Positions 3,883-20,975 of a DNA stretch of 64,000 bases are shown here, piece after piece. The position numbers were made by a program, and so were the translations under genes. Each line of letters begins with the position of its first letter. Position 1 is the stretch's first letter. The notes under the pieces are model-generated. The model worked only from the letters and a program-made list of their open reading frames with translations. It was not told the origin of the DNA and made no database searches. The DNA is from an uncultured virus (IMG/VR IMGVR_UViG_3300025751_000002) (taxonomy: Duplodnaviria; Heunggongvirae; Uroviricota; Caudoviricetes), in the IMG/VR virus record IMGVR_UViG_3300025751_000002; one strand, written 5' to 3'.

Positions 3883-3908
3883 ACGTCGAGCTGGACGTTA
3901 AACGTAGC
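3883..3908 (+). ncRNA. family A pseudoknot leader, copy 1
   Basis: CGTC-gagctg-GACG-TTAAAC-gtagc. Confidence 0.55.
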
Positions 3909-3930
3909 ACAATTCAATCGCATTTCACCA

Positions 3931-4077
3931 ATGAACATCGATCAGGCTAATCGTTTGGAACAGCTCATGCTTCAGTTTGCAGATCTTGTACGTGAAGTTG
4001 ATGATTCTCAACTGACTTATCTATTCGACGAGATGCTCAATTACATGGGCAACGAAGACAACTACGATTTCATCTGA
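3931..4077 (+). CDS. small acidic protein (48 aa, below ORF-track cutoff)
   Basis: MNIDQANRLEQLMLQFADLV...NYDFI*, bracketed by structured elements. Confidence 0.65.
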   Translation: MNIDQANRLEQLMLQFADLVREVDDSQLTYLFDEMLNYMGNEDNYDFI

Positions 4078-4138
4078 CCACAAGCGTGATGCCGGGGGAT
4101 CAAATCCCCTGGTCAGGTATTGCCACAATCCAGTGGCA
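4072..4138 (+). ncRNA. family C tRNA-like three-way junction plus hairpin, copy 1
   Basis: ATCTG/CAGGT closing stem, small hairpin, GCCGGGGG-ATCAAAT-CCCCTGGT arm, then TGCCAC/GTGGCA hairpin. Confidence 0.6.
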
Positions 4139-4155
4139 TCTATTCCATACAAACC

Positions 4156-4338
4156 ATGACTCAACGCATTGCATTTGTTGTTATTGTCGCTGCTACATTC
4201 ATGGGCATTGGTACTCAGATCACTATCCATAAGTTGGATGAGGCGACTGCAAAACAATGCTTAACACATGATTGGCCAGCAGACGCAGCTAACATCCACC
4301 TTGCGTGGTGTGCAGCTAACAACTACCCAACCAACTGA
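4156..4338 (+). CDS. small membrane-anchored Cys-pair protein (paralog 1)
   Basis: N-terminal hydrophobic helix, LDEATAKQC..HDWP...IH..WC motif. Confidence 0.7.
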   Translation: MTQRIAFVVIVAATFMGIGTQITIHKLDEATAKQCLTHDWPADAANIHLAWCAANNYPTN

Positions 4339-4402
4339 TCCGTTAAAGCGGGTGACCAGGTGCAAACCCTGGTCCAGTTTTTGCCCTCAGCGGAGATGGG
4401 CA
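4333..4402 (+). ncRNA. family C element, copy 2
   Basis: AACTG/CAGTT stem, TCCG/CGGG hairpin, GACCAGG-TGCAAAC-CCTGGTC arm, TGCCC/GGGCA hairpin. Confidence 0.6.
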
Positions 4403-4422
4403 CCGCACAACAGGAGTTTCCT

Positions 4423-4611
4423 GTGACTACTGCACACAAAGCCATCCTTATCTACGTTGTTATCAATGTAGTTGTTGGTATACCAGCTGCCTTGATTGGT
4501 GCTCGTCACCTCGATCAAGCAACAGCTAAGCAGTGCAAAGCGCACGACTGGCCTGCTGCTGCACATCAGATCCATATGGATTGGTGCGCAGATAACGGTT
4601 ACGACACCTGA
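4423..4611 (+). CDS. small membrane-anchored Cys-pair protein (paralog 2)
   Basis: GTG start after CAGGAG; LDQATAKQC..HDWP...IH..WC motif shared with 4156-4338. Confidence 0.7.
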   Translation: MTTAHKAILIYVVINVVVGIPAALIGARHLDQATAKQCKAHDWPAAAHQIHMDWCADNGYDT

Positions 4612-4672
4612 TTCGTTAAGGCGAGTGGTAGGGTTCAAACCCCTACCCAGGTATTGCCACAATCCCGTGGCA
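4606..4672 (+). ncRNA. family C element, copy 3
   Basis: ACCTG/CAGGT stem, TTCG/CGAG hairpin, GGTAGGG-TTCAAAC-CCCTACC arm, TGCCAC/GTGGCA hairpin. Confidence 0.6.
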
Positions 4673-4690
4673 TCTATTCAACTACAGCTC

Positions 4691-4954
4691 ATGGAACCCC
4701 TCATCTATCAACCCTTGGCTGAGAAAACGTATCGTGTCACATGGTACGGCAGTGAGAATCAAATCCATTTCGAGAAGTGGTGCCTAGTAGCAACACCTAA
4801 CTTCGATGGGCCACACGAGTGGATAGCAATTGACACTCGTACATTAATGGGAGGTTTGCCTACTGGTACCAAAGAACTTCACCAAGAGATGGAGGAGTAT
4901 TACAACTACTGCATCGTCATGGAGATGGACTACATCGAATCTCTTATCCACTAG
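4691..4954 (+). CDS. hypothetical protein
   Basis: ATG 4691 in ORF 4496-4954, directly downstream of element C3. Confidence 0.65.
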   Translation: MEPLIYQPLAEKTYRVTWYGSENQIHFEKWCLVATPNFDGPHEWIAIDTRTLMGGLPTGTKELHQEMEEYYNYCIVMEMDYIESLIH

Positions 4955-5044
4955 ATTCCTGCACTTAACCCTACTTACGTAAGTGAGTGGGTTTTCTGCA
5001 GGATTCACATCCTGCATCAACCAAATCAATTCACATGGAGAACC

Positions 5045-5407
5045 ATGAATTATCTCACTCTCATCCACCACCTCGACACAGCAGTACAACTGGTAAGTAA
5101 GTTGTATGCACTAGGTGGAGAACTCTTTAGCATCACAGCGATGCTCTGGTGCTTGAACATCATTGCTTCAATGATTAAGAAGACATACCAGGCAGGTTAT
5201 GCCATTGGTAGTTTCTATCGTCAGTATTTACATCAACACTGTAAGTGGGTAGCAATCCACTTGGTAGCACTCATTGTGTTGATCATCCAGATGTTCTGGG
5301 AAGGTTGCATGTACATTTACCAGAACAGACAGAAGTATTACAAGGTAGTTAACGATATCAGGAATGACATTGGCATGTTGTTTGCATATCGTTACCTCAT
5401 CAACTAA
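5045..5407 (+). CDS. hypothetical membrane protein
   Basis: 120 aa with two hydrophobic segments. Confidence 0.65.
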   Translation: MNYLTLIHHLDTAVQLVSKLYALGGELFSITAMLWCLNIIASMIKKTYQAGYAIGSFYRQYLHQHCKWVAIHLVALIVLIIQMFWEGCMYIYQNRQKYYKVVNDIRNDIGMLFAYRYLIN

Positions 5408-5410
5408 TCA

Positions 5411-5447
5411 CTGGGCATCCACATAATATGTGTGGTGTAAGCCCCAG
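5411..5447 (+). ncRNA. family B bulged-hairpin leader, copy 1
   Basis: CTGGG-CATCCAC...GTGGTG-TAAGC-CCCAG. Confidence 0.55.
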
Positions 5448-5475
5448 GGATTCCAACCACTGTTAAGTTCAACTT

Positions 5476-5739
5476 ATGCCAATCACGTTTGACAATTCAG
5501 AGCTAAAGCAAGCTTTATATCAATTCGACATCAATGAAGAGGATTATTACATCCTTTGTACTGAAAACACTGTCTATATTGTGTGGTGTACCCATGGCAC
5601 AGATGCTTTGGCGCATGCGCGCCAGAATGACTGTGTATCAGTTGAAATCAAAGGTGAATGGTTTTACGCCGAAGAACTTCATGATTTTTTCGAGCCCCCG
5701 CACTGGGTTTGTGCACGTTACATCCTTGCTACTAATTGA
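5476..5739 (+). CDS. hypothetical protein
   Basis: 87-aa ATG ORF. Confidence 0.6.
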   Translation: MPITFDNSELKQALYQFDINEEDYYILCTENTVYIVWCTHGTDALAHARQNDCVSVEIKGEWFYAEELHDFFEPPHWVCARYILATN

Positions 5740-5742
5740 ATC

Positions 5743-5952
5743 ATGACTATTTACCGCATGGGCAAAGGTTTTGTGACCATTGACTCTCATCCCGAGTCCA
5801 ATAAGACTCGATGGGATGATATTGCAGTGGCAGCACTTGCAATCATCCTTGCTGCACTATCAGTACCTGCATTGTTAGGTATTGATATCACCAAGCTCAA
5901 CCCACAACAAACCTCTTGTCATCATGAGCATTCACGTAGCGTTAATCTCTGA
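5743..5952 (+). CDS. small membrane protein
   Basis: hydrophobic segment IAVAALAIILAALSVPALL. Confidence 0.55.
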   Translation: MTIYRMGKGFVTIDSHPESNKTRWDDIAVAALAIILAALSVPALLGIDITKLNPQQTSCHHEHSRSVNL

Positions 5953-6151
5953 CTACGGTTCCGGTATTTGGCATGTTTATGGCGAAGCACAAAGCTTTGG
6001 TATGTTCGCATGTCAACTCGAAGACCTGGGTTGCCAGGTCATCGAGAATCAATCGGATGAATGGGAGGGATGCACCAAGGAAGAAGTAGAGGAGGATGCG
6101 TGCTCCATTGCACAACTCCTCGCTGATCCTAGGTTCACACCACATATGTAG
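5924..6151 (+). CDS. hypothetical acidic protein
   Basis: ATG 5924 within ORF 5882-6151. Confidence 0.55.
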   Translation: MSIHVALISDYGSGIWHVYGEAQSFGMFACQLEDLGCQVIENQSDEWEGCTKEEVEEDACSIAQLLADPRFTPHM

Positions 6152-6226
6152 CGTGTGACCTGACCTCAGACTCTATACCTAGTACTTGTCTTTGGATGAG
6201 TACTAGGTATTATTTCAACGCACCTA

Positions 6227-6718
6227 ATGCATCCCATGGAAGCACTCAGTCAAGTTGATGTTTCAAAACCAGATCACGTCAGTGTGATTACCAGGGATAA
6301 CAAGGTGACCATCTCAGTTACAAAGGATGGGCAATCAGTTACCCTAGGTTTCCAACTGTTGAAATCAGTTAGTAATCAAAGTAAGCAACCTGTTGAGAAG
6401 GTTGATCTACTCGACTTGTTCTCTTCCCCCACACCCCCGAAACAGCCGACACCACAGGCAAAGGCTGTTAAGGTAGATCCTCCAAACATTAGCCTACGGA
6501 AACGTATGGCTAGATCAAGGCATTATGTCAATGGTAATGCCAAGTTAGGAAGTAAGGAGGTGCGTGAAATCAAACAACTATTAGCCGATGAAGCATTCAT
6601 GAATGAGTATACAACTCGCAATGAAGGTTTCAAAGAACTGGCTAAGATTTATGGAGTGACAAGCACTTCCATATCCAATATTGATCGTGGTATTTCATGG
6701 AATAATATTACGATCTAA
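6227..6718 (+). CDS. protein with C-terminal helix-turn-helix DNA-binding domain
   Basis: NAKL..KEVREIK...KELAKIYGVTSTSISNIDRGISW. Confidence 0.65.
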   Translation: MHPMEALSQVDVSKPDHVSVITRDNKVTISVTKDGQSVTLGFQLLKSVSNQSKQPVEKVDLLDLFSSPTPPKQPTPQAKAVKVDPPNISLRKRMARSRHYVNGNAKLGSKEVREIKQLLADEAFMNEYTTRNEGFKELAKIYGVTSTSISNIDRGISWNNITI

Positions 6719-6786
6719 ACCCTGTTATATCTGAAGTATTGGTTGGCACGTAAGATTTGCCAATACATGCCAATGCTTCAGCAAAC

Positions 6787-6837
6787 ACTAGGCATCCACT
6801 ATTGAGAACTATTCTCATCTGTGGTGTAAGTCCTAGT
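6787..6837 (+). ncRNA. family B leader, copy 2
   Basis: ACTAGG-CATCCAC...GTGGTG-TAAGT-CCTAGT. Confidence 0.6.
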
Positions 6838-6866
6838 CCTTCCCAAACCCTACCTCAATTCAAACC

Positions 6867-7142
6867 ATGCAGGACCCTACCTTCATCGATGCACAACGCA
6901 ATGCTGATCTCTTGGATACCATGGCAGATTATGCATTCGAACTAGAAGAAGCAATGCGTGAAGCAGAGCTTACTGAAATCCATTGGGTGTGCGTCGGTTA
7001 TGACACACTCCAGATGAGGAATGATGCATTGGGTTACATGGCAGATACTGCATTACAAGCAGAAGATATCTGTCGTAAGCTTCACCCAAACTTTGACATC
7101 TACTACACCAAGCGTTGCGAAGATTGGGAAGCAACCAAATGA
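6867..7142 (+). CDS. hypothetical protein
   Basis: 91-aa ORF with CTCAATTCAAACC-ATG leader. Confidence 0.65.
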   Translation: MQDPTFIDAQRNADLLDTMADYAFELEEAMREAELTEIHWVCVGYDTLQMRNDALGYMADTALQAEDICRKLHPNFDIYYTKRCEDWEATK

Positions 7143-7233
7143 ATCAATCACTTTGGAAACAATGTTGGGATGACGGTAACATCGTCATCCTTTTTATTGC
7201 AATCACTTCACTCATCATCACGGAACTACTGTC

Positions 7234-7605
7234 ATGCTTCATCCAGAAACCCAAGCAATCGCCAAAGCAATCACTGGTTACGAACCGTTCGAAGGCGATG
7301 AATGCCTTGAGCAATACCAAGCTGAAATCAACTTCGATCCCAAAGGAGTTGTCCTCGGAAAGCTTGACACCTACCCCAAGAACGGATCAGTGTACCGCAC
7401 CAAAGGAACCCTTAGGCTCTACTGGAAACCAACCGGAGGTAACTACTCGCAAGAAGACAAGGATGCGCTCCAAGGATGGTACGACATCCCGTGCAACGAA
7501 GACATAGAGGAATGGACAATGGATAGCGTATGCTTTACACCAGGTGATGATGAGGTTGAACCCGATCATCCAGACAGCTGGCTATCGTTGCTCGGACTCA
7601 TCTAA
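7234..7605 (+). CDS. hypothetical protein
   Basis: 123 aa ending VEPDHPDSWLSLLGLI. Confidence 0.65.
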   Translation: MLHPETQAIAKAITGYEPFEGDECLEQYQAEINFDPKGVVLGKLDTYPKNGSVYRTKGTLRLYWKPTGGNYSQEDKDALQGWYDIPCNEDIEEWTMDSVCFTPGDDEVEPDHPDSWLSLLGLI

Positions 7606-7621
7606 CCAATCAACTGAACTT

Positions 7622-7849
7622 ATGCAACCTCCAATTGGATTAACTGTCAACCAACGTAATCTCTACATGTATTACTTAAATCACATGAAGAAACGTCCTG
7701 ACGAACCATGTTATGTACCGATGCTTCCAAACCCAAGTAGGTTGAAGTATTACATGATTGCTATCCAACGACTGGAGGAGCATAAACTAGTAGCAGTCGA
7801 TCGAACTGCTGGGCATTACACCAGGTGGATCTTAAAGAAGCCTGAGTAA
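7622..7849 (+). CDS. hypothetical protein, possible winged helix
   Basis: LTVNQRNLY...AIQRLEEHKLV pattern. Confidence 0.5.
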   Translation: MQPPIGLTVNQRNLYMYYLNHMKKRPDEPCYVPMLPNPSRLKYYMIAIQRLEEHKLVAVDRTAGHYTRWILKKPE

Positions 7850-7851
7850 AT

Positions 7852-7904
7852 GCATGGGCATCCACTATTGAGAACTATTCTCATCTGTGGTATAAGTCCC
7901 ATGC
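7852..7904 (+). ncRNA. family B leader, copy 3
   Basis: GCATGGG-CATCCAC...GTGGTA-TAAGT-CCCATGC; core nearly identical to copy 2. Confidence 0.6.
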
Positions 7905-7932
7905 TAACCGTACACCTTTTACAACACAGCTC

Positions 7933-8268
7933 ATGACCAACCAAAGCTTTCCTGAAGTGCCTCCCACTGGCGTTCCCTCTGACGCAGTTCTTAAAGTGAA
8001 CTGGGTCAAGAACGAGTACTACTACGTTCAACAAGCTTTGACATTACTGAAAGATGTCATTGCACGTGAATCCAAGAGGCATGAGATGGATCAATATCTC
8101 ACACCAAGTATGTATGCAATGCTTGATGATGAGATCATTCCAATGCTAGAGAATGAACTGGACTACGAACCAAGTGATGCAGATCTTGGTTACGGTAGTG
8201 AACCACCTATGACAATGGATGAGATGTATAAGAAAGCAGTCGAGGACAAGCGTATCGCCTGGTCGTAA
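7933..8268 (+). CDS. hypothetical protein
   Basis: 111-aa ATG ORF. Confidence 0.65.
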   Translation: MTNQSFPEVPPTGVPSDAVLKVNWVKNEYYYVQQALTLLKDVIARESKRHEMDQYLTPSMYAMLDDEIIPMLENELDYEPSDADLGYGSEPPMTMDEMYKKAVEDKRIAWS

Positions 8269-8363
8269 GCTTTCCCCCCAAACCCCCCTGGAAGAGAACC
8301 AGGGGGGAATCTTTTATTAGTATTAGTTAATTACTTTAATCAACCTTCAAATAATCTTTAATC

Positions 8364-8564
8364 ATGACTAAACCTAAATCCTCTATCAACTTTGATAGAA
8401 CCATTGCTGGATTCAATGTTACAGAACATGGTGTTCAATCGTATTCCAAATCAATCAAGCTTGGTCCTTTACAACTAACTATTAATGCCCGTGGCTCAGG
8501 TGTCCGTGGATCAATTAGTATTCCTGGCACAGGCCTGAGCAAACGGAACATCAAGTTGTTCTAA
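8364..8564 (+). CDS. DUF4236-like small protein
   Basis: SKSIKLGPLQLTIN...SISIPGTGLS motif. Confidence 0.55.
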   Translation: MTKPKSSINFDRTIAGFNVTEHGVQSYSKSIKLGPLQLTINARGSGVRGSISIPGTGLSKRNIKLF

Positions 8565-8589
8565 CCAAACATTAAGAGAATCTAAAGCA

Positions 8590-8616
8590 CTGGGCGTCCT
8601 TTGGTGTAAGTCCCAG
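8590..8616 (+). ncRNA. family B leader, copy 4 (minimal)
   Basis: CTGGG-CGTCC-TTT-GGTG-TAAGT-CCCAG. Confidence 0.6.
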
Positions 8617-8642
8617 CTTCTAACCCAACTCCAACTTCAATC

Positions 8643-8810
8643 ATGCTTAATTTGTTTGATCGTATCAACATTGCTTCCTGCGCTGTCAAACGCGCAGAGA
8701 AAGCAATCCTTAAAGAAGATACTTTCCATGGCGAGTGGGAAACTGCTCGTGCCTGGACTAGGTATCGTTGCTACATCTCACCCAAGTGTCAATTCGTGGA
8801 GTGCGACTGA
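8643..8810 (+). CDS. small hypothetical protein (55 aa, below track cutoff)
   Basis: MLNLFDRINIASC...FVECD*, TGATG-coupled to the next gene. Confidence 0.6.
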   Translation: MLNLFDRINIASCAVKRAEKAILKEDTFHGEWETARAWTRYRCYISPKCQFVECD

Positions 8811-9061
8811 TGACTGTACTTTCAATCGAAGAAACAATCGTATCTGACACCCATGTCAAAATCACAGCAATTGTTGACGAGATGCGCCTCGTTTATCGCG
8901 CAACTCACTTCGAGCCTGATGAGTGGGCTCCTGCATTGTGTCAAACAACTATTGAGCTGGATCCAGAGGAACCAATCCCTCTTGATGAAGATGGCTTCTG
9001 TGCCTATCTTGATCAGCTCGATCCTCAATGGCAACTACTAGACAAGGATGACATCGAATGA
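8810..9061 (+). CDS. hypothetical acidic protein
   Basis: ATG overlaps the upstream stop. Confidence 0.6.
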   Translation: MTVLSIEETIVSDTHVKITAIVDEMRLVYRATHFEPDEWAPALCQTTIELDPEEPIPLDEDGFCAYLDQLDPQWQLLDKDDIE

Positions 9062-9215
9062 TTGGATTCTCTCTTGAATTTAAGCGCTGGTACTTTGTGC
9101 TGCGTGGTCCCAAAGGTCGTGTTTATCTAGCTACTGGCTTTGCAAAGCGAATGCCAGTCATGACACCGACTGGTACATACACCATCGAACAGTACCAAGA
9201 CCAGTACTGATCCAC

Positions 9216-9243
9216 CGTCCTGGACATGACGTTAAACTGTCCA
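9216..9243 (+). ncRNA. family A pseudoknot leader, copy 2
   Basis: CGTC-c-TGGACA-t-GACG-TTAAAC-TGTCCA. Confidence 0.65.
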
Positions 9244-9265
9244 TTCCACTTACCCACTCAATTCA

Positions 9266-10999
9266 ATGCAGTTCCAATTACCTTCCAACCTCCAAACCGA
9301 ACTCCTTGCCTACGATCCAGCACTGAAGGCGCTGGCTCAACAGGCCAAGCCTAAGACTACCAAGAAAGCTAAGTATCCACTGGGTAACATCCCTCACCTC
9401 ATACCACACAATGTGGTGCGTGAGTCAGATCAGCAGGCTGCGATTGATCACATCAACCAGCAGAAGGCACCTGATCGCTACAAAGTATTTACCACGCCTG
9501 TGGACGTAGCAACTCCGCAAGCTCGCCTCAAAGTCATTGCCATCTTGTATCACTACGAACAGGTGTGGTACGCAGCGTGGCTACCTCCCAAGCAGCAAGA
9601 AGATGAGTATGTTTATGGCCATGCCTATGCCTTCAAGAACACAGCAGCTGCTAAAAAGGTGGCACCTAACTGGATTTGGAACAGCAAGGACAAGTGCATC
9701 GAGCACGAAGGTGGTCGTGGTGTCCAGACCTTTACTTACTCAATGAATATCACCAAGGAAAACATCATTGGTAAAGCTGAGCATGGCTATCAACATTACC
9801 AATGGCGAGCAGGAAATCTTTATTGCCAGAAAGGTTATCAGATCAGAGACAATGCTGTTGAAGCATTTGAGAAAAGCCTACGTCAAAACATTCCCACATG
9901 GGAAGATTCCCGTGGATTATTTGATCGCATCCGTTGCGAGAACATCTTTGATGCAGCAGAGATACCTGGCGGTATGTCTAAGTATCTAGATAAGAACGAT
10001 GGTCTGACTATTGATAACTTAATTAATGCTGCTAAAAAGTTCAATCAGATGGAGAGGGTGTATACATCAGGCACTTATTGCACCTTGGTTAGTGTTGAAC
10101 GCATCATTTCCAAGCCTGCTATTAAGAAACTTTTACAAATACATCTTGACGAATGCACAAGAACTTATAACGATCCAGATAACAATCGCCAGAAACCAAT
10201 TAGGCAAGCCTGGTCTACATTCCTCCAGGTTATTAATGCCATTGATTGGATTAACAACATCTGGCCTGATTGCCCGCTTGATCATTACCAGACTCATTAC
10301 AAGGAACTTCTTTCTATTAAGCTTCATCAAGTTCGTGTGCGCACTATCGATGCTGACAAAACCATACTGATTGATTGGTTGCGTGAACACATGCCTGTTG
10401 CATCACTCTTCAAGATCATGTATAAGTATGTTGAAGAACAGGATTCCAAAACATCATGGATTGACTCTGATGTTGGTTATGCACGGTATGGATTCCATGA
10501 GCTGAATGACACATTCTCCATGGCAATCCGTATCCTTAACCATCGTGGAGAACTTGCACCACCAAAGCGTTGGCGCCTTAGTGAGTTCCATGACTACGTG
10601 CAAGCTGAGTCCTGGAAGATCCAAAATCCCAACGAATCCTTGCTTCAAGATTTATTTCCTGAACCTATCAGAGTTACACGCAATGGTAAAACCTGGTCAT
10701 TCTTCCAGCCTGTTGACACACATCAGTTGGCTATGTGGGGCCAAGCCGTACGCAACTGCGTCGGTTCTGCATCGCACTATGCCGATGACATCAAGAAGCG
10801 TAAGCACTTCATTGTGCTATGCATGATTGATGGTAAGCCTACCTTTACCATCCAACTGGTGGTTGATATGGGTATGATGTCCGTCAAGCAGATTGCTGGT
10901 GTTGCTAACCAGCGTCTCACGGAAGAGCAACGTGAAGCTTACACAGAAGCTTTCCGTGAGGTCTTGCAACAACGAGAGAAGCAGCTACAATCTGCCTGA
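9266..10999 (+). CDS. PcfJ-domain protein
   Basis: C-terminal L..WGQAVRNCVGS..Y...FIVL....FTIQL...QIAGVAN motif. Confidence 0.7.
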   Translation: MQFQLPSNLQTELLAYDPALKALAQQAKPKTTKKAKYPLGNIPHLIPHNVVRESDQQAAIDHINQQKAPDRYKVFTTPVDVATPQARLKVIAILYHYEQVWYAAWLPPKQQEDEYVYGHAYAFKNTAAAKKVAPNWIWNSKDKCIEHEGGRGVQTFTYSMNITKENIIGKAEHGYQHYQWRAGNLYCQKGYQIRDNAVEAFEKSLRQNIPTWEDSRGLFDRIRCENIFDAAEIPGGMSKYLDKNDGLTIDNLINAAKKFNQMERVYTSGTYCTLVSVERIISKPAIKKLLQIHLDECTRTYNDPDNNRQKPIRQAWSTFLQVINAIDWINNIWPDCPLDHYQTHYKELLSIKLHQVRVRTIDADKTILIDWLREHMPVASLFKIMYKYVEEQDSKTSWIDSDVGYARYGFHELNDTFSMAIRILNHRGELAPPKRWRLSEFHDYVQAESWKIQNPNESLLQDLFPEPIRVTRNGKTWSFFQPVDTHQLAMWGQAVRNCVGSASHYADDIKKRKHFIVLCMIDGKPTFTIQLVVDMGMMSVKQIAGVANQRLTEEQREAYTEAFREVLQQREKQLQSA

Positions 11000-11012
11000 A
11001 CCCACACGGTTT

Positions 11013-11046: not shown

Positions 11047-11050
11047 ACCT

Positions 11051-13837: not shown

Positions 13838-13880
13838 ATGGCACGCTTGGACTCAACATCTGAGCGTGTCATCTTTTTCT
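13838..13880 (+). terminator. probable intrinsic terminator
   Basis: ATGGCACGCTT/GAGCGTGTCAT stem followed by a T run. Confidence 0.6.
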
Positions 13881-14166
13881 TTTTGTTCACCAAGTAAATA
13901 ATGAATGCCTGGTTCACTGGATCTGACCTCCGGTTACAAAGGGAAAGTAGCAAGCGTTACGGTACTTCAAGCAGAGCCATGGACGGTGGGCTAGGTTCCA
14001 CCAGGCTTTATCTTGTTGTACTTGTTGATCTTTGTTGTAAGAGCAGCCCCTGTATGTCAATGTCATTTGATTTGGTATCTATTGATACTGAAAGTATATG
14101 ATCATTGATGTATATGAAGCTGTTCGTGCTGTAACACAAACCTCTACATAAGTAAATCTTATGGAT

Positions 14167-14276
14167 AGAGGGTGTGGCTCCACGGTAATCACGTCGCAGA
14201 GCCATTCGTTTACTAACCGAAGGAAGCTACAAAAACTTCGGTTCCCTCTGGACCTGACGTAGCTCTTCTTCGGTCC
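14167..14276 (+). ncRNA. candidate structured RNA with loop-loop pseudoknot
   Basis: four Watson-Crick stems plus AGCTAC/GTAGCT loop-loop complementarity. Confidence 0.55.
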
Positions 14277-14294
14277 TGTTACATTCTACTTGTT

Positions 14295-14322
14295 ACGTCC
14301 TGGGATGACGTTAAACTCATCC
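14295..14322 (+). ncRNA. family A pseudoknot leader, copy 3
   Basis: CGTC-ctgggat-GACG-TTAAAC-tcatcc. Confidence 0.6.
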
Positions 14323-14344
14323 GTATTCCAACTCAATTTCAACC

Positions 14345-15115
14345 ATGCAATTCCTCAAGTTCTCCAACGGCAACAGCAAGCTGACCGATCGCCTTATCTT
14401 TTCTCTGCCTGCTGGTTACACCTGTCCTCACGCTGGTGTCTGCAAAACATTTGCTGATCCAGATACTGGTAAGATTCGTGACCTGCCCCAGTACACAGGT
14501 GTTGAAGCAGCTTATGAGTTTCGTTGCTTTGCTGCACTATCAGAGAAGTATCCCAACGTACGCAACCTGCGTTGGCATAACTGGAATCTGATCCGTGAAT
14601 GTATTGCCAATCAATCTGGTGATGCACAAGCCTATGCATTGCGTGATCTCATCGACGAATCACTGACCATGTGTGCGCCCAAGAAATTGGTACGCATCCA
14701 TGAGTCAGGTGATTTCTGGACAGAGAACTACATGCGTGCTTGGGCAATGGTTGCCATGATGCGCCCATACCAAACGTTCTATGCTTACACCAAGTCACTT
14801 GGTATGTGGCTCAACTTGCAGGATCAGATCCCTGACAATATGAAGCTCACTGCATCTCATGGTGGGACACTTGATTACCTCATCCCTAACCATAAGGATG
14901 TATTCCAACGTATCTCATACGTTGTCTACACAGAAGAACAAGCAGCTGAGCTTGGCCTCGAGATTGACCATGATGACAGTCATTGCCTGGGTGATAAGCC
15001 CTTTGCATTGCTTGTCCATGGCTCCCAGAGGGCTGGATCTGACGCAAGCAAAGCGATCAGTGCACGCAAGAAGGCTGGCAAGTTTGTTGGTTACAACAAG
15101 AACAAAATGAAATAA
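14345..15115 (+). CDS. GP88-like (gene product 88) Cys-containing phage protein
   Basis: GNSKL..IFSLPAGYTCPHAGVC...CFA...VRIHESGDF...FYAYTKS. Confidence 0.7.
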   Translation: MQFLKFSNGNSKLTDRLIFSLPAGYTCPHAGVCKTFADPDTGKIRDLPQYTGVEAAYEFRCFAALSEKYPNVRNLRWHNWNLIRECIANQSGDAQAYALRDLIDESLTMCAPKKLVRIHESGDFWTENYMRAWAMVAMMRPYQTFYAYTKSLGMWLNLQDQIPDNMKLTASHGGTLDYLIPNHKDVFQRISYVVYTEEQAAELGLEIDHDDSHCLGDKPFALLVHGSQRAGSDASKAISARKKAGKFVGYNKNKMK

Positions 15116-15127
15116 CGCCTGATTTAC

Positions 15128-15175
15128 TTGCACATCAGATGGAATTCGGTAGTATGCAACCGTCTTCCATCTGAT
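15128..15175 (+). promoter_or_regulatory. sigma70-like promoter overlapped by an 11-bp inverted repeat
   Basis: TTGCAC-16 nt-TAGTAT; ATCAGATGGAA (15134) and TTCCATCTGAT (15165). Confidence 0.4.
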
Positions 15176-15177
15176 TT

Positions 15178-15411
15178 ATGAGTTACGTCATTGCTTGTTG
15201 GCTGCATGATGCACCACATGCCATTACTGCCAATAGTGAAACGAATCGATTTGATTTAATTCCACTAGAATCTGACGTGGCATTGAACAGGATTTTCTCG
15301 CATCCTTATCGCGCAGGTGCGCAACAAATCTTGTCCTGGATTAACAACAATGACAGTGAACTTGCAAGTAAAGAACTCTCAATTCAAGATGAGTCCCGCT
15401 TCCGCAAATGA
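15178..15411 (+). CDS. hypothetical protein
   Basis: 77-aa ATG ORF upstream of pol. Confidence 0.55.
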   Translation: MSYVIACWLHDAPHAITANSETNRFDLIPLESDVALNRIFSHPYRAGAQQILSWINNNDSELASKELSIQDESRFRK

Positions 15412-17212
15412 AAAGTATCTTGTCTTTGATTTGGAAAGCGATGGACTTTATGACAAAGTAACTAAAGTACATTGCATTGTCATCCATGACATTGGATCCA
15501 ACCAAACTTTTTCTTATGGGCCTGATTGCATTGCTGATGCTATTGCTCATCTGGCAACCGCTGATGTTTTGATTGGTCACAACATCATCTTCTATGACAT
15601 CCCAGTACTAAACAAACTTTACTCATTCACCACTACTTCAGAGATCATTGACACACTCATTTGCACACGACTCATCTGGCCCAAGGAAAAACTCTACGAG
15701 CTTGACCTTGAACAATATCCGGAAGTTCCACCGAACTTACGTGGATCCGCATCGCTTAAGACATGGGGATGGCGATTGGCCGATCATAAAATCGAATTCA
15801 AAGATTTCTCTGAATACTCCAGCGAAATGCTTGCATACTGCAAACAAGACGTTGCTGTTACTACAAAACTTTGGGATCATATCGCCAAGCAATCCTATCC
15901 ACCATCTGCGCTTAAAGTTGAACATGATTTTGCGCTCGCAATTAATAAACAAATTAGAGCAGGTGTTCCATTTGATGTGGATGCATGTCTTGATTTGGTG
16001 GATGATCTCAGAACAAAACAAAGCAAACTTGAAGCAGAATTAAAGGAAGTATTTCCACCTATCCAACACCACACTTGGTTTACCCCCAAGGTAAACAACA
16101 AAAATCGTGGTTATGTAAAAGGAGTTCCTTTTGAAAAGATCCGAACTGAACAATTCAATCCTGGATCTCGTCAACAGATTGTTGATCGACTTAAGCAAAA
16201 GTACGGATGGCAACCAGAGAAAACAACTGAAAAAGGAAATCCAATCCTTGATGATGAAGTTTTAGAAAAGCTCCCCTACCCAGAAGCAAAACCTCTGGCA
16301 GAGTACATGCTCGTCAAGAAACGCCTTGGTCAAATCGCTGATGGGAACAACGCTTGGCTCAAGCTGGTTAATCATGACAGCGGTCGCATGCACGGTGACG
16401 TTGTTACTAACGGCTGCGTCACTGGTCGCTGCGCTCATCGGTACCCAAACATGGGCCAGGTGCCAGCGGGTTATTCAGCTTATGGTAAGGAATGTCGTTC
16501 ATTGTTTCATGCGCCACAAGGATGGAACATGATTGGTATTGATGCCAAGGCATTGGAGTTGCGTTGCCTTGCAGGTTATCTTGCCTTATATGATGATGGT
16601 GAATATGCGCGTGTTGTAACTAATCCTGATATTGATATTCATGTTTATAATCAAGAAAGATTTGGTGTGGCCACCAGGGATATTAGTAAGCGTTTGCTTT
16701 ATGCCTGCCTATATGGGGCAGGTAATTTAAAAGCAGGAACAATTATTGAACCAAATGAAAAGGATGAGGACGTATTGCGTAAAGCAGGAAGAACTGCAAT
16801 CAATTCATTCATGCAAGGTGTACCAGCCCTTAAACAATTGAAAGAAAAAATTGATGACAACATTACACACCGGGGTTATCTTATTGGTCTTGATCGTCGC
16901 GTTCTTTATTGTCGCTCAGCTTTCAAGGGATTGAATGTGCTCCTGCAATCAGCAGGTGCAATCTTAATGAAACAAGTTGTTATTAATGTACATAACAATA
17001 TTAAACAAGTGCTTGGTCTTGAGCACGGCAATGGATGGGAACAAGTTTTAATGGTGCATGACGAGATTCAACTCGTATGTGCACCCAGGTACACAGAACA
17101 AATCAGGGAACAAGCAATGCTTGCTTTCCCACAGGCACAGGAGTTCTTTGGATTCCAGTGCGACATTGAAGGCGATTCTCGTGTTGGGACCAACTGGTCT
17201 GAAACACATTGA
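15389..17212 (+). CDS. polA: family A DNA polymerase (T7-like, 3'-5' exonuclease plus polymerase)
   Basis: ExoI DLESDG, ExoII GHNIIFYD, ExoIII YCKQD; motif A DAKALELR, B KRLLYACLYG, C VHDE. Confidence 0.95.
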   Translation: MSPASANEKYLVFDLESDGLYDKVTKVHCIVIHDIGSNQTFSYGPDCIADAIAHLATADVLIGHNIIFYDIPVLNKLYSFTTTSEIIDTLICTRLIWPKEKLYELDLEQYPEVPPNLRGSASLKTWGWRLADHKIEFKDFSEYSSEMLAYCKQDVAVTTKLWDHIAKQSYPPSALKVEHDFALAINKQIRAGVPFDVDACLDLVDDLRTKQSKLEAELKEVFPPIQHHTWFTPKVNNKNRGYVKGVPFEKIRTEQFNPGSRQQIVDRLKQKYGWQPEKTTEKGNPILDDEVLEKLPYPEAKPLAEYMLVKKRLGQIADGNNAWLKLVNHDSGRMHGDVVTNGCVTGRCAHRYPNMGQVPAGYSAYGKECRSLFHAPQGWNMIGIDAKALELRCLAGYLALYDDGEYARVVTNPDIDIHVYNQERFGVATRDISKRLLYACLYGAGNLKAGTIIEPNEKDEDVLRKAGRTAINSFMQGVPALKQLKEKIDDNITHRGYLIGLDRRVLYCRSAFKGLNVLLQSAGAILMKQVVINVHNNIKQVLGLEHGNGWEQVLMVHDEIQLVCAPRYTEQIREQAMLAFPQAQEFFGFQCDIEGDSRVGTNWSETH

Positions 17213-17217
17213 TTGCC

Positions 17218-17244
17218 CGTCCTAAGTATGACGTTAAACTGCTT
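17218..17244 (+). ncRNA. family A pseudoknot leader, copy 4
   Basis: CGTC-ct-AAGTA-t-GACG-TTAAAC-TGCTT. Confidence 0.65.
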
Positions 17245-17264
17245 TAACACTGCTTTTTTACGCA

Positions 17265-18086
17265 ATGATGAACTGCGCTTTTGTCTGTGCATCCCTCGCC
17301 GAAACACCACGTGAGGTATACACATCTGCAACTTCTTCTTCTTACTGTGCGGAAGTAATTCTTCCTAGGGTAAGTCAAAACAAATCTGAAACTCGAATCA
17401 AGTATCACGTCTATGGCAAAGCAGCAGAAAGATTCCTGCGACTCAAGCAGAACTCCCTCATCTATATCCATGGTGCCACCTTACGATTTGATGTTCAGAC
17501 CAAGACCCACTCCTTACATGCAGGTTCTCTTGCAGAAGTTACTGAATCATTCCCGATCTTCAATGATGTAATTCTTGCAGGACGTTGTATCAAAGATATT
17601 GACAAGGAAGATCCACGTGCTTTCAAGACAACTGCTGATGGCACAATGATTTGCTCGCAAACATTAAGTGTTTCCACTGGTAGAAACCAGTGTGATCTAT
17701 TTAATTTCTATGCAATCAATAATGCTAATGATCGTTTGAATCTTGCAGAACTTATCTGCAACATGACTAAGAAAGGAACAGAGATGACTCTTCGTGGTCG
17801 CCTTGTAACAGATGCATGGAATGATAAACAAACCAATGAGCGCCGTACAGCAACCAAGATTCAAATCAATAAGGTAAATATTGTACGGACTCGTGATGAG
17901 TCCAAAGATAAACCTGTGGTTTCACAAACAACTGTGGCTGCCGAAGGGAATGTAGCTAGCCTATGGGGAGGCAAAACGGTTGAGGATTCCCAGGATGCAT
18001 GGAACGAAGCATCTGGTGGTGGCTTGCCTGAACTTCCAGGTCAATACACCGCAGCTCCTGTTTTTGCATCGGACGAACCCTTCTGA
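17265..18086 (+). CDS. ssb: single-stranded DNA-binding protein, two tandem OB folds
   Basis: VYGKAAE...KQNSLIYIHG and KKGTEMTLRGRLVTDAWNDKQT; acidic DEPF C-terminal tip. Confidence 0.75.
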   Translation: MMNCAFVCASLAETPREVYTSATSSSYCAEVILPRVSQNKSETRIKYHVYGKAAERFLRLKQNSLIYIHGATLRFDVQTKTHSLHAGSLAEVTESFPIFNDVILAGRCIKDIDKEDPRAFKTTADGTMICSQTLSVSTGRNQCDLFNFYAINNANDRLNLAELICNMTKKGTEMTLRGRLVTDAWNDKQTNERRTATKIQINKVNIVRTRDESKDKPVVSQTTVAAEGNVASLWGGKTVEDSQDAWNEASGGGLPELPGQYTAAPVFASDEPF

Positions 18087-18107
18087 TCTCTTGGTACAAT
18101 AAGTACC

Positions 18108-18134
18108 CGTCCTGGGATGACGTTAAACTCATCC
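18108..18134 (+). ncRNA. family A pseudoknot leader, copy 5
   Basis: identical 27-mer to copy 3; TACAAT box ends 7 nt upstream. Confidence 0.6.
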
Positions 18135-18155
18135 ACTTTTCACTAAGAACAAACC

Positions 18156-19172
18156 ATGACTTCTTCTCCGACCAAAACCAAGAAAGATGCACTGGCTACT
18201 CGTAGCCTTGATTCGTTTAAACTTTTTGCAAGCAAAGAGTTTATTTCTGGTTACCAGAACTTGGTAACAATTCAACCACTGAATAAATCAAAAGTACGTG
18301 GTTGGTTTGTACGTAAATCAGACCTTGATGTCTGTGGATGGACAGCAACGGAAGATGACTTTACCCCAGGTTCTGTCATCTGGAATTACAAGCAAACCTT
18401 TGGTATGGCTCCCAATACTTCTATTGAAGAGGGATTGAATTTTACTGAGCCTCGCATTCAAGTATTGTTGCGTTCACCTTTGATGGTGGAAGAAACTACT
18501 GGTATGCGCCAAGTAATTGGTACGTTTGAAGATGAAGAAGTAAAAGCAATCTTTGATAATGATAAGGTTGCTTCTGATCTTGCCAATAGCAAAGGCGAGA
18601 TGTACAAGCGTAAGTACAGTGTACGTACAAAGTATTTGATCTTTATCCTGACCAAGGATAATAAGCGTGCTCACAAAAATCCTATTGTGCTTACACTTAA
18701 AGGATTGAATGGTACTGATGTATCAGATAAAGTAAAGCTTTATGAGAAAGAGATGTCTAAGTGCTTAAGCAAAGCACTGGACTCTGAGATCCCACTTGCA
18801 TTCAACGAAAAGTTCTATGCAACCACAGTGTTTACACCTGTGCTTGCAAATGAAATGCGTGGTGCAAATAACGTTGAGATCTGTGCAATTGAATCCTTTT
18901 CGATTCCAGATTACTCAACGCAAGAAGCTGCAATTGAATCGTTGAATAACCTTTCAATTCCAGACGAGGATCGTGCATCTACTTGGAAGTTCCAAGAGTT
19001 GTTTGATGATTACATCAATCAACATGCAAAGCAAGATGCCAAGAAACTCAATGGTTCTTATGGCATCAAAGAAGGATTGAACATTCTTCCTGTCTCACGT
19101 AGCAACGACGCAGTTGATGTGAAGGTGCTTCCAGCACGTGATGAAATGACAGGGGAAGATTCATTCCTCTGA
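18156..19172 (+). CDS. conserved cyanobacterial/cyanophage protein (DUF5895-like)
   Basis: 338 aa in the replication cluster; family assignment from memory only. Confidence 0.45.
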   Translation: MTSSPTKTKKDALATRSLDSFKLFASKEFISGYQNLVTIQPLNKSKVRGWFVRKSDLDVCGWTATEDDFTPGSVIWNYKQTFGMAPNTSIEEGLNFTEPRIQVLLRSPLMVEETTGMRQVIGTFEDEEVKAIFDNDKVASDLANSKGEMYKRKYSVRTKYLIFILTKDNKRAHKNPIVLTLKGLNGTDVSDKVKLYEKEMSKCLSKALDSEIPLAFNEKFYATTVFTPVLANEMRGANNVEICAIESFSIPDYSTQEAAIESLNNLSIPDEDRASTWKFQELFDDYINQHAKQDAKKLNGSYGIKEGLNILPVSRSNDAVDVKVLPARDEMTGEDSFL

Positions 19173-19430
19173 TTTAGTTTTAACTTCTGGGTTAGCCAAG
19201 TCATCTCCATCAATAGAAATATTGTTGAAGATAAACATGTCTTGTACTAACCCACGAATTACACCTTGACGTTGAGTGGCGATCTGCGCAAGCAAGGTCG
19301 CCATTTCTTTTAAGGCACCAACTGAATTACAATCTTCAATGGAACGTTTAATCTTTTCAAGCCAAAACTTATCATCAAGCGTTGGTTCAATTTGGAATTT
19401 GGTTAGAGGCACGTACTTTATCTCTTCCAT
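19161..19430 (-). CDS. divergent NblA-like helical hairpin protein
   Basis: PTLDDKFWLEKIKRSI...LKEMATLLAQIATQRQGVIRGLV follows the NblA L.L...F spacing. Confidence 0.45.
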   Translation of the reverse strand: MEEIKYVPLTKFQIEPTLDDKFWLEKIKRSIEDCNSVGALKEMATLLAQIATQRQGVIRGLVQDMFIFNNISIDGDDLANPEVKTKSEE

Positions 19431-19512
19431 AAAGTATTAAGTTGTTACAAAACATTCTAACCAATGCATTAAACTCACACTAAATCTTTTGTTTCTGTTA
19501 AGGATTACTCAC

Positions 19513-19704
19513 ATGAAACCCGAACAAAAAGCTGCTGTCAAGGTTGGTGGTACCACAGCTCTGGTTACTGCTGGCCTTGCTCTTCTGTTGCCTTCTCCTG
19601 CCGCTTGGGCTGCAGTGATCTACGGATCGTATAGAATGGCAAAAGGCGCCTACCAACGCGCTAAGGAAGACCGGCTCCAGCAGGACTACTGGCTGGACAA
19701 CTGA
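19513..19704 (+). CDS. small membrane protein
   Basis: hydrophobic central segment. Confidence 0.55.
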   Translation: MKPEQKAAVKVGGTTALVTAGLALLLPSPAAWAAVIYGSYRMAKGAYQRAKEDRLQQDYWLDN

Positions 19705-19734
19705 TCCAACTTCAACCCAACCCAAGTCCAACTC

Positions 19735-20679
19735 ATGTCAAACCAACAGGTAACCGAGCTTGATGCTGCGCAAAAATTTATTTACACACGTACCAACATA
19801 CGTCGTGCCTTCAATGATTTTGATGACACTGACATTGCTGACATCTATCTTCAAGGCGAAGATTGTCTGATCTTACGTCGTGATGGTAGCCAGCAAACAT
19901 ACAACAGAGAACCCATCAAGGTTGCATATACCAGCTATACTCATCGCTTAAAAGATTTCTTTTCTTACCTTGGTCCTAACTATCGCGGTCCTAGTGTATG
20001 GCATAACAATGCTTATGTTCTTTTTAAAGGATGGTACTACTCCCATGCGTTAGGTCACCTTACACCTAATGCAAGATTGCAAGCTGCATGGGCGGATCGT
20101 TTCATTCATCTGAACGATGTACAAAAAGTAACTGCTCTATTGCAATCAGATCAAGCAGACCTTGGTCATCTCATTGCACCAGATGGTTTGCGTGCACAAG
20201 ATATGCCCATTGATTTCAACAGCAGCTTAGATACTGTTGAAGAAGTCAAGCCAATCTTTGGTGAGCCATGGTGTTCTTGTGGTTCGTATCAACAACAACT
20301 TAATAACATCTCTTCTTTTTCCCAGGAGATTGAAGGCTTCAAGCCATGGTGCATCCATCTGTCCTGGTTCAATAAGTACCGCGAGATGCTATCCAAACGT
20401 ACGGAAGCACGTAACCAAGCACCGAACGGCACACCAAGTAAGTGTGTTGCATGGTGGTACCAGCCGCCTTCTGACCATCTATCTGATGGTTTATTCAAGG
20501 TGCTCTACACAACATATGGTGCTCAAGCACCTGTCAGCCACTGGCGTAACTACAAACCAGATGAGCATTTCACACAAAACCATGCATGGGATTTGTTCTT
20601 CAATATGATGGAGGCGGGATACGTACCATTCCCTGGTCGCTCACTTCCACAACTTCAATCTGTTGTTAAAAAGCAATGA
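19735..20679 (+). CDS. SWIM zinc-finger protein
   Basis: WCSCGSY...WCIHL (CxC...CxH). Confidence 0.65.
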   Translation: MSNQQVTELDAAQKFIYTRTNIRRAFNDFDDTDIADIYLQGEDCLILRRDGSQQTYNREPIKVAYTSYTHRLKDFFSYLGPNYRGPSVWHNNAYVLFKGWYYSHALGHLTPNARLQAAWADRFIHLNDVQKVTALLQSDQADLGHLIAPDGLRAQDMPIDFNSSLDTVEEVKPIFGEPWCSCGSYQQQLNNISSFSQEIEGFKPWCIHLSWFNKYREMLSKRTEARNQAPNGTPSKCVAWWYQPPSDHLSDGLFKVLYTTYGAQAPVSHWRNYKPDEHFTQNHAWDLFFNMMEAGYVPFPGRSLPQLQSVVKKQ

Positions 20680-20942
20680 CAACCAAACCAATGGAACTTT
20701 CTGAACTCAATCTCCTGCTTGCCAGCAATAAACTCATTGCTGAGATCACCGACAAAGAAGATGGTGATGGCATTGAAATTAAATTGAACTGGGATGACAA
20801 TGATCCAGATCTAAAGCGTTGGGACAAGATGTCAAAGAAAAAGAAGTGTGAGTTGTTTGAAGCACTTCTTTACAAAATAGTTGAACCAAGGGTTGACGAG
20901 CCTGGTAAGCTAGCACTGTCCGCCAAGGACATCAAGCTCTGA
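20676..20942 (+). CDS. hypothetical protein
   Basis: 88 aa, ATGA-coupled. Confidence 0.6.
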   Translation: MTTKPMELSELNLLLASNKLIAEITDKEDGDGIEIKLNWDDNDPDLKRWDKMSKKKKCELFEALLYKIVEPRVDEPGKLALSAKDIKL

Positions 20943-20947
20943 CGAGA

Positions 20948-20975
20948 CGTCCTAAGCATGACGATAAACTGCTTA
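20948..20975 (+). ncRNA. family A pseudoknot leader, copy 6
   Basis: CGTC-c-TAAGCA-t-GACG-ATAAAC-TGCTTA. Confidence 0.65.

Follow-up and report, generated by a model that had tools for sequence, protein, structure and literature searches.

The coremin motif is a short RNA of eukaryotic RNA viruses (beny-, cucumo- and other viruses) that has been demonstrated by experiment to stall the exonuclease Xrn1 (PMC10520033, PMC6546385), and the present analysis concerns a small repeated element of an uncultured tailed phage (IMG/VR record IMGVR_UViG_3300025751_000002), a predicted RNA pseudoknot (hereafter the knot) whose invariant core coincides with that motif. The window, i.e. the whole stretch of DNA that was analysed, is 64,000 nucleotides (nt) in length. 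In the coremin literature, the motif is quoted as GUCCGAAGACGUUAAACUAC (PMC10520033) and begins with a hairpin of 3-4 base pairs (bp) closed by C-G (PMC6546385, PMC10520033, PMC10321173), whose loop is YGAD or YGNNAD, starting with Y and ending with A-D, with longer loops tolerated (PMC6546385); in the spacer that follows, three A and then C, U and A are essential and two U tolerate change (PMC6546385). Coremin without its second hairpin is not resistant to Xrn1 (PMC10520033, PMC10321173). It has been modelled as an H-type pseudoknot with a one-base loop 1 and an A-rich strand lying along stem 1, and selected variants with a Watson-Crick stem 2 stall Xrn1 as well (PMC10321173), although its structure is described as unsolved (PMC10520033). 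Bacteria and phages are not mentioned in PMC10520033, PMC6546385 and PMC10321173, and a literature search on "coremin motif" found 9 papers, none of which deals with prokaryotes. Exonuclease-resistant RNAs have been described for eukaryotic RNA viruses, and a search of the literature for such RNAs in phages and prokaryotes retrieved flavivirus and genome-editing work only, with no natural phage or bacterial example; RNase J and 5'-end-dependent RNase E nevertheless pose the same selective problem in prokaryotes.

The pattern CGTC-N6-8-GACG-WTAAAC has six exact matches in the window, all on the + strand, starting at 3884, 9216, 14296, 17218, 18108 and 20948, compared with a mean of 0.00 in 100 dinucleotide-preserving shuffles. 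The core GACGWTAAAC alone identifies the same six sites, against 0.11 expected. The copies, and one looser candidate, are listed below with their flanks (ORF, open reading frame) and their covariance-model scores.

9216..9243, + strand: canonical knot; stem 1, 9216-9219 with 9228-9231 (CGTC/GACG); loop 1, C9220; stem 2, 9221-9226 with 9238-9243 (TGGACA/TGTCCA, 6 bp); junction, T9227; loop 3, 9232-9237 (TTAAAC); upstream ORF stop at 9208-9210, gap 5 nt; ATG of a PcfJ-like gene at 9266, 22 nt 3' of the knot; 46.2 bits, E 3e-8
17218..17245, + strand: canonical knot; stem 1 CGTC/GACG; stem 2 AAGTA/TGCTT, 5 bp with one G-U; DNA polymerase stop at 17210-17212, gap 5 nt; ATG of ssb at 17265, 19 nt 3'; 44.7 bits
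20948..20975, + strand: canonical knot; loop 3 ATAAAC; stem 2 TAAGCA/TGCTTA, 6 bp; stop of the ORF 20676-20942, gap 5 nt; ATG at 20996 of a short conserved ORF (MFESF...), 20 nt 3'; 42.1 bits
14296..14323, + strand: variant knot; 7-nt loop CTGGGAT; stem 2 GGAT/ATCC, 4 bp, or 5 bp with a 2-nt bulge; ATG of GP88 at 14345, 21 nt 3'; 24.0 bits, E 0.003
18108..18135, + strand: variant knot; loop as at 14296; stem 2 GGAT/ATCC; ssb stop at 18084-18086, gap 21 nt; ATG of a DUF5895-like gene at 18156, 20 nt 3'; 26.1 bits, E 0.001
3884..3908, + strand: divergent copy; stem 1 CGTC/GACG; 6-nt loop GAGCTG; loop 3 TTAAAC(G); possible stem 2 GCTG/TAGC; ATG at 3931 of a 48-codon ORF, 22 nt 3'
3346..3373, + strand: loose candidate knot; CGG/CCG, TAAAAC and CTGCG/CGCAG drawable; about 23 nt before the ATG at 3396

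The preliminary description of this stretch had proposed a six-copy family, heading genes for PcfJ, a GP88-like protein, single-stranded DNA-binding protein (SSB) and a DUF5895-like protein as well as two tiny ORFs (those at 3931 and 20996), and this was borne out. Four of its start positions were exact and two (3883 and 14295) were off by one, and its figure of 20-22 nt from the element to the ATG becomes 19-22 nt when each of the six copies is measured from the last base of stem 2. The loop spacer is TTAAAC in five copies and ATAAAC in the copy at 20948. As that description had claimed, the loop of each CGTC/GACG hairpin is complementary to the bases after the spacer in every copy, but not with equal clarity. 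The register of stem 2 is ambiguous at 14296 and 18108, where the nested minimum-energy fold lengthens the helix into stem 1 and the covariance model favours 5 bp with a 2-nt bulge. The copy at 3884 is the weakest, having a stem 2 of 4 bp that includes one G-U, and there the model matches GACGTTAAAC alone (10.7 bits, E 2.9). Five window copies were recovered by the model with E values of 0.003 or lower, and it returned nothing else up to E 0.01 on the two strands. The candidate at 3346, which had been regarded as a variant of the family, found no match with the covariance model up to E 10; although a looser knot can be drawn there, its membership is unproven.

The H-type RNA pseudoknot is strongly supported by sequence covariation, and this support is much better between genomes than within the window, from which the earlier claim of covariation had been drawn. 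An IMG/VR scan with GTCC-N5-8-GACGTTAAAC identified at least 128 loci, and these, together with the window, Synechococcus phage S-EIVl (the nearest deposited relative, with 70.8% identity over 57% of a 7.2-kb replication stretch) and related contigs, gave a pool of 164 distinct sites; all locus counts here are minimum figures, and the taxa represented are a sampling, not a complete inventory. Among the matches listed, at least four contiguous loop pairs right after TTAAAC could be formed in 76 of 90 sites with an 8-nt loop, versus 3 of 48 sites with a 6-nt loop, which provide an internal control. For the covariance model and the covariation scores, 67 distinct elements of 29 nt were aligned, three of them copies from the window and the others from S-EIVl and further viral contigs. 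When this alignment was scored against the structure ((((.[[[[[[.))))......]]]]]]. 94.2% of cells paired, compared with 82.9% in shuffles, a percentage inflated for the inner pairs because the rows had been pre-selected for at least four stem-2 pairs and GTC/GAC was fixed by the search pattern. The covariation score was 0.435 versus 0.200 in shuffles, none of 500 of which scored as high, and it was at most 0.117 when the partners were slid by 1-3 columns. Double-sided changes occurred at 7 of the 10 pairs. Stem 2 covaries at five of its six pairs (for example, 30, 26 and 19 double-change rows at three of them), and its fifth pair, unforced by the selection, is paired in 59 of the 67 rows with 26 double changes; G-U pairs are also present in stem 2, with UG in 20 rows at one pair. 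The outer pair of stem 1 covaries as well, being C-G, U-G, U-A or A-U among relatives.

An unbiased test of stem 1 was provided by a scan for sites in which position 15 is not C, which gave at least 86 distinct sites, 68 of them with a stem 2 of 5-6 bp. Among the matches listed, the second stem-1 pair is kept in 66 of these 68 (C-G in 28, A-U in 28, U-A in 7, and U-G or G-U in 3); across relatives this pair is G-C, C-G, A-U or U-A. In S-EIVl, the knot lies on the gene strand 5' of the orthologues of five genes (PcfJ-like, GP88, ssb, DUF5895-like and MFEF), and its two stems differ by compensatory changes (stem 1 TGTC/GACA or AGTC/GACT; stem 2 CAAGCA/TGCTTG, GGCA/TGCC and others), so that the copies at 17218 and 20948 have orthologues 5' of ssb and of the MFEF ORF, the latter with stem 1 AGTC/GACT. 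Five related contigs contain 3-10 copies each, all on the gene strand except two chance-like one-mismatch matches, and the variant knot at 14296 is present in a related contig too. With the covariance model, 35 matches were obtained up to E 1, those of each genome all lying on a single strand. The strict sense-strand bias and the G-U pairs of stem 2 point to an RNA rather than a DNA element. A near-identical IMG/VR record has five identical knot copies, and a search for relatives with the SSB protein yielded three loci, pattern scans being far more productive.

Rfam at gathering score found one tRNA over the whole window and nothing else; at E up to 10 over 3300-21100 no family, PreQ1 (RF00522) included, fell on the copies, and no family was found at the knot in 20 knot-bearing bacterial loci. 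Possible resemblances to the pistol ribozyme and to luteoviral frameshift knots gained no support from these Rfam searches. The preliminary description had held that a match to an Rfam family of known function would remove novelty, and in this respect the element stays new; its core, on the other hand, is already in the literature as the coremin motif, and what is new is the pseudoknotted prokaryotic form. Of the two parallels offered earlier, exonuclease-blocking RNA is the one that the comparison favours, since the element's invariant core, UC-C...A-D-GA..UUAAAC-U, is that of the 20-nt coremin motif quoted in PMC10520033. The AAA is unchanged in all relatives found with one mismatch allowed, and the two leading U take the variation (spacer variants CTAAAC, TAAAAC and ATAAAC, with TTAAAG and TTAAAA once each). 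Among the matches listed with an 8-nt loop (90 sites), U follows the spacer in 81; in the loop itself, 83 sites have A at the penultimate place (position 11), and 81 end with A, G or U. The first loop base was fixed as C by the pattern in these 90 sites, but it is also C in 38 knots in which the search left it free (5 from S-EIVl and 33 from related contigs), the sole exception being the window copy at 3884, whose loop starts with G.

The invariant bases and their order are thus common to both RNAs: a short stem (3-4 bp) with a C-G closing pair and U-A beneath it (all six window copies have CGTC/GACG), a loop of the form C...A-D, and (G)UUAAACU with its AAA. In both, the two U and the lower stem pairs are variable and the AAA is fixed, and sites lie near stop codons and in intergenic regions. 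Tandem copies also occur in both; two to three knots about 15 nt apart precede one ATG on an 11.4-kb viral contig (L055 and L056), recalling the tandem coremin copies of some plant viruses (PMTV, BSBMV and TAV; PMC6546385). There are also differences. Coremin belongs to eukaryotic RNA viruses, whereas the knot occurs in DNA phages and bacteria, and its nuclease resistance is a prediction. Its 8-nt loop (CUNNNNAU), with U or C at the second position, does not fit YGAD or YGNNAD; a Watson-Crick stem 2 of 5-6 bp follows immediately after UUAAAC; and the second hairpin after the spacer is absent. A described form with a similar architecture is xrRNA-WCC, known from screen variants and from Sanxia picorna-like virus 5 (PMC10321173). 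Its stem 2 is likewise antiparallel and Watson-Crick, pairing the loop of stem 1 with bases around the spacer's end, and its loop 1 is a single base; an A-rich strand is modelled in the minor groove of its stem 1, and its A-U pair 7:19 corresponds to A11-U23 of the knot. A covarying Watson-Crick stem 2 is indeed what the phage elements have, but in a register shifted by one base and longer than published: that of xrRNA-WCC is 3 bp including the C of AAAC, whereas that of the knot is 5-6 bp and starts one base later. In addition, the loop-1 base is G in xrRNA-WCC and C in the knot, and xrRNA-WCC still requires the second hairpin that the knot lacks. The element thus appears to be a prokaryotic, fully Watson-Crick variant of the coremin class and not a wholly new RNA.

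Sites closer to canonical coremin were also observed in long DNA viral contigs, in the form of hexaloops (CGCAAU, CGAAAU, CGACAG and others, then GACGUUAAAC) for example at the IMG/VR loci L025, L035, L037, L045, L068, L075, L091 and L010/L018/L038. Among the matches listed, 25 of the 48 6-nt loops fit YGNNAD, with about 2 expected given the fixed first C, and a hairpin follows 28 of these 48 sites versus 19.8 +/- 3.1 in shuffles. A hexaloop site (L068) and a knot-type site (L069) occur together on one contig of 28.8 kb, and in one hexaloop group the spacer runs directly into AAGGAG and ATG.

The placement of the knots relative to neighbouring genes is also constrained. With the upstream gap taken from the stop codon of a nearby ORF of at least 30 codons to the first base of stem 1, an ORF ends nearby upstream in 70 of 86 knots, and the gaps are distributed as follows.

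0-3 nt: 0 knots
4 nt: 1 knot
5 nt: 24 knots
6 nt: 5 knots
7 nt: 8 knots
longer: a thin tail
apparent overlaps: 5 knots

Three window copies (9216, 17218 and 20948) have a gap of exactly 5 nt. Counted from the first base of the P-site codon, the ribosome's mRNA entrance is about 11-12 nt further on; five bases after an A-site stop codon would thus put stem 1 at the entrance, such that the upstream ORF could be finished with the knot unmelted. On the downstream side, 64 knots have a nearby start; in 41 of these, 25-28 nt separate UUAAAC from the ATG, and distances under 23 nt hardly ever occur. The ATG is thus 19-22 nt after stem 2, approximately the 5' reach of an initiating 30S subunit. Other phages and bacteria show a variable distance to ordinary Shine-Dalgarno starts. 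The leaders between knot and ATG are G-poor and CA-rich and have no Shine-Dalgarno sequence (for example, 9244..9265 on the + strand, after the knot at 9216), with 0-3 G in the last 25 nt before each of the six ATGs. Because genes of the module that lack a knot have leaders of this kind as well, the knot is not what makes these leaders translatable.

Taken together, these features are best explained by a self-folding mechanical roadblock of the coremin structural class that would shield the RNA downstream of it from 5'-to-3' decay, a function that is plausible and to which we attach middling confidence. Each copy, once transcribed, would fold by itself into an H-type RNA pseudoknot about 28 nt long, comprising a 4-bp stem 1, a 1-nt loop 1 (C), a stem 2 of 5-6 bp, a 1-nt junction and UUAAAC along stem 1, and would lie between the cistrons of polycistronic early and replication transcripts. 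The 5-nt gap would let the upstream ribosome reach its stop codon without unwinding the knot, and the next ribosome to initiate would use the roughly 20 nt that follow it. Without any protein partner, the knot would thereby obstruct enzymes moving 5' to 3' on RNA, most likely RNase J, an exonuclease of the host, and/or RNase E, which depends on the 5' end; decay begun upstream would stop one nucleotide before the knot, leaving a stable, translatable mRNA for the gene behind it. Fold, conservation, spacing and the sequence match to coremin are direct results of the comparison, from which we infer the block of a bacterial nuclease and the identity of that nuclease. Three considerations argue for a self-contained roadblock: the conserved bases are those of a protein-free exonuclease-stalling RNA, the distribution of the knot is too wide for a phage-specific protein partner to be plausible, and the occurrence of knots in front of tRNA genes implies that translation is not the sole context.

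As for the enzyme, RNase E searches from a monophosphate 5' end. RNase J would be the obvious 5'-3' enzyme in cyanobacteria and in most phyla with the knot, and is named in a cyanobacterium (PMC12464536). It was detected above the curated cut-off in four of five motif-bearing genomes, a presence that is not decisive because the enzyme is too common and one genome is without it. This genome, a motif-bearing 1.3-Mb Omnitrophota assembly with no RNase J above the cut-off, is one of several points that weigh against the proposed roadblock, as does the inflated pairing percentage mentioned above. Ordinary frameshift knots fail to stall Xrn1 according to PMC10321173, which implies that being a knot does not suffice. 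The second loop base, G in coremin, is U in 74 of the 90 8-nt-loop sites, C in 10 and G in only 3. Of 76 knots, 12 have a hairpin of at least 4 bp next to them on the 3' side, versus 21.2 +/- 3.6 in shuffles, and 3' of the window copies no hairpin was predicted apart from weak long-range pairs. The similarity to coremin could also be convergence on a minimal fold. Moreover, two RNA runs (shares 0.13 and 0.07) provided 24 and 10 short low-depth contigs over 20 kb, for which DNA carry-over is possible, and these contigs gave neither RNA starts nor ends.

The main rival of the nuclease roadblock is an action on ribosomes, either as an intercistronic insulator against re-initiation or as a tuner of initiation on a leader without a Shine-Dalgarno sequence, which we consider unlikely even though it explains the spacing equally well. 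The sharp stop gap (24 of 70 exactly 5 nt, none 0-3 nt) corresponds to the entrance of a terminating ribosome and the distance to the AUG is narrow, and coremin itself blocks scanning eukaryotic ribosomes (PMC10520033) and stimulates -1 frameshifting, including in an E. coli screen (PMC10321173). However, the same spacing would result from selection to keep the knot folded, the distances elsewhere are variable and lead to ordinary Shine-Dalgarno starts, knot-less module genes with the same G-poor leaders indicate that the knot is unneeded for initiation, and the knots 5' of tRNA genes are left unexplained. A -1 frameshift or readthrough of the upstream stop was considered and rejected. Viral -1 frameshift H-type knots are of similar size and topology, and the 5-nt distance from A site to knot equals their spacer, but they have a slippery heptamer in front, whereas a stop codon precedes the phage knot and the frame of the downstream ORF relative to the upstream one is not constant (+1, +1 and -1 at the three copies with a 5-nt gap). 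Action during transcription, with the knot as an obstacle to Rho (anti-polarity in poorly coupled early operons) or as an antitermination or pausing signal, seems improbable. Rho moves 5' to 3' on RNA, so that a roadblock between cistrons could stop it, and several prophage copies directly follow intrinsic terminators; yet nothing in the sequence links the knot to Rho sites or polymerase-binding RNAs, and the C-rich, G-poor leaders after it would favour rather than prevent Rho loading downstream.

The second parallel suggested earlier, autoregulation of T4 gene 32, corresponds to an operator for a phage RNA-binding protein, in which SSB would nucleate at the knot, spread over the leader and repress a replication regulon. 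One copy does head ssb here, as its orthologue does in S-EIVl, the leaders are unstructured and G-poor, and candidate structured RNAs upstream of GP32-type genes have been reported in many viruses (PMC10690425). The T4/T2 gene 32 mRNA knot is similarly a compact H-type knot 5' of an unstructured phage ssb leader, a likeness of architecture, there being no Rfam model of that element (PMC10690425). Nevertheless, that knot serves one gene and depends on the gene's own protein, whereas the present one heads six unrelated genes and extends far beyond such phages. Instead of being specific to its own SSB leader, it also precedes tRNA genes, tiny ORFs and prophage head genes, and its core is found in unrelated phages (a Microviridae record, Moorella phage MTATph1 and Nostoc phage NMeng1) and in many bacterial phyla, so that a shared protein partner is implausible; in addition, the conserved bases are those required for protein-free coremin function in vitro. 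An SSB operator is therefore disfavoured and must be rated highly improbable. Finally, a position immediately 5' of genes and an architecture that presumably resembles small ligand-binding knots with an A-rich tail, such as preQ1-I, might suggest a small-molecule riboswitch, or else a DNA-level signal (hairpin promoter or origin). Either is scarcely credible, given the Rfam result over 3300-21100 reported above, a loop fully used by a freely covarying stem 2 with no conserved pocket, functionally unrelated downstream genes and, for the DNA-level signal, the G-U pairs and strand bias.

A broader form of the roadblock reading, put forward more tentatively, is that the knot represents the first natural translocase- or exonuclease-resistant RNA class in prokaryotes, with one minimal, protein-free fold shared by eukaryotic RNA viruses, DNA phages and bacteria and used as a modular intercistronic insulator. 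It would be present in tailed phages, Microviridae, contigs of giant-virus size and many bacterial phyla, and would be set one ribosome edge (5 nt) behind a stop and one initiation footprint (about 20 nt) before an AUG, with all mRNA being either ribosome-covered or knotted and decay by RNase J or RNase E, or scanning, halting at each knot. This layout of stop, 5 nt, knot, 20 nt and AUG suggests a general means by which phages could split mRNAs into separately stable units. Hundreds of natural variants with compensation in both stems also provide a secondary-structure model and a list of invariant bases for the tertiary contacts of coremin; if the relationship is true, natural covariation would settle the secondary structure of coremin. 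A portable stabiliser or insulator of 28 nt may furthermore be useful for synthetic biology in cyanobacteria and Gram-positive bacteria.

Beyond this phage, a prokaryote scan with one genome per species found at least 124 loci with the same core, and the bacterial groups among the matches listed include Omnitrophota, Desulfobacterota, Bacillota, Planctomycetota, Saccharibacteria, Zixibacteria and others; only one locus, apparently intragenic, was from betaproteobacteria. Among deposited phages, a 34-nt query located the knot in the Microviridae record and in the Moorella and Nostoc phages named above. Two Saccharibacteria genomes and a viral contig (L173, L228 and L288; at L173 the knot is at 151-174 and tRNA-Gln at 196-270) have knots 7-21 nt 5' of tRNA genes, on the strand of these genes, and the knot of Nostoc phage NMeng1 (L395) is 5' of an annotated pseudo-tRNA. 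In Firmicute genomes and prophages (L151, L152, L165, L199, L214, L224 and L232), a hairpin that resembles an intrinsic terminator, T run included, is found 5-10 nt 5' of the start of the knot, and a Shine-Dalgarno gene start comes after the knot; in an Enterococcus case, the flanking genes resemble prophage head genes, as judged by ORF sequence alone. In Omnitrophota, Desulfobacterota, Bacillota and others, the knot comes straight after a tiny ORF, or overlaps its end, the ORF ending in ...(K/R)xxMLRxVAHC(K/T/S)(E/G)GC (bacterial loci L269-L272 and L274, and many of L145-L268), where two of the three reading frames through the knot terminate at its own UGA or UAA. Judged by N-terminal sequences only, the neighbouring genes appear to be permease-like, Rrf2-type-regulator-like, ferredoxin-like and copper-chaperone-like.

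Within the window, the identified proteins (DNA polymerase A, primase-helicase, ThyX, and tail and virion proteins) are those of a tailed phage, and the knot copies are confined to a co-directional early and replication module at about 3.3-21 kb, the covariance-model search having found no further knot in the rest of the 64 kb. Over 2700-21500, sigma-70-like promoters are depleted (17 vs 36 expected), with none at any knot copy, and no terminator is directly 5' of any window copy; the idea that the knot marks primary transcript starts was unsupported by this promoter and terminator scan. Terminator-like hairpins on the + strand are enriched in the same interval (31 vs 14.3 expected), and examples are as follows.

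3080-3108, + strand: terminator-like hairpin
8283-8307, + strand: terminator-like hairpin
11013-11042, + strand: terminator-like hairpin
12165-12182, + strand: terminator-like hairpin
13838-13872, + strand: terminator-like hairpin

A tRNA-Leu(taa) is encoded at 11260-11336, and about 190 nt (14102-14295) between a short ORF ending at 14101 and the knot at 14296 contain no convincing ORF. In an unlabelled sequencing run rich in phage relatives, apparent contig "joints" fell exactly at 3884, 9215 and 17218 (three times), and the knot was apparently the best-shared stretch among those relatives over 3301-23300. A second leader element, (G)GTGTAAGTCCCA, heads knot-less genes of the module about 30 nt before their ATGs, with CA-rich leaders of the same kind after it. 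It could represent a promoter or else a further leader RNA, and its copies are the following.

5436-5446, + strand: (G)GTGTAAGTCCCA, before the ATG at 5476
6825-6835, + strand: (G)GTGTAAGTCCCA, before the ATG at 6867
7891-7901, + strand: (G)GTGTAAGTCCCA, before the ATG at 7933
8605-8615, + strand: (G)GTGTAAGTCCCA, before the ATG at 8643
11740-11750, + strand: (G)GTGTAAGTCCCA, before the ATG at 11780

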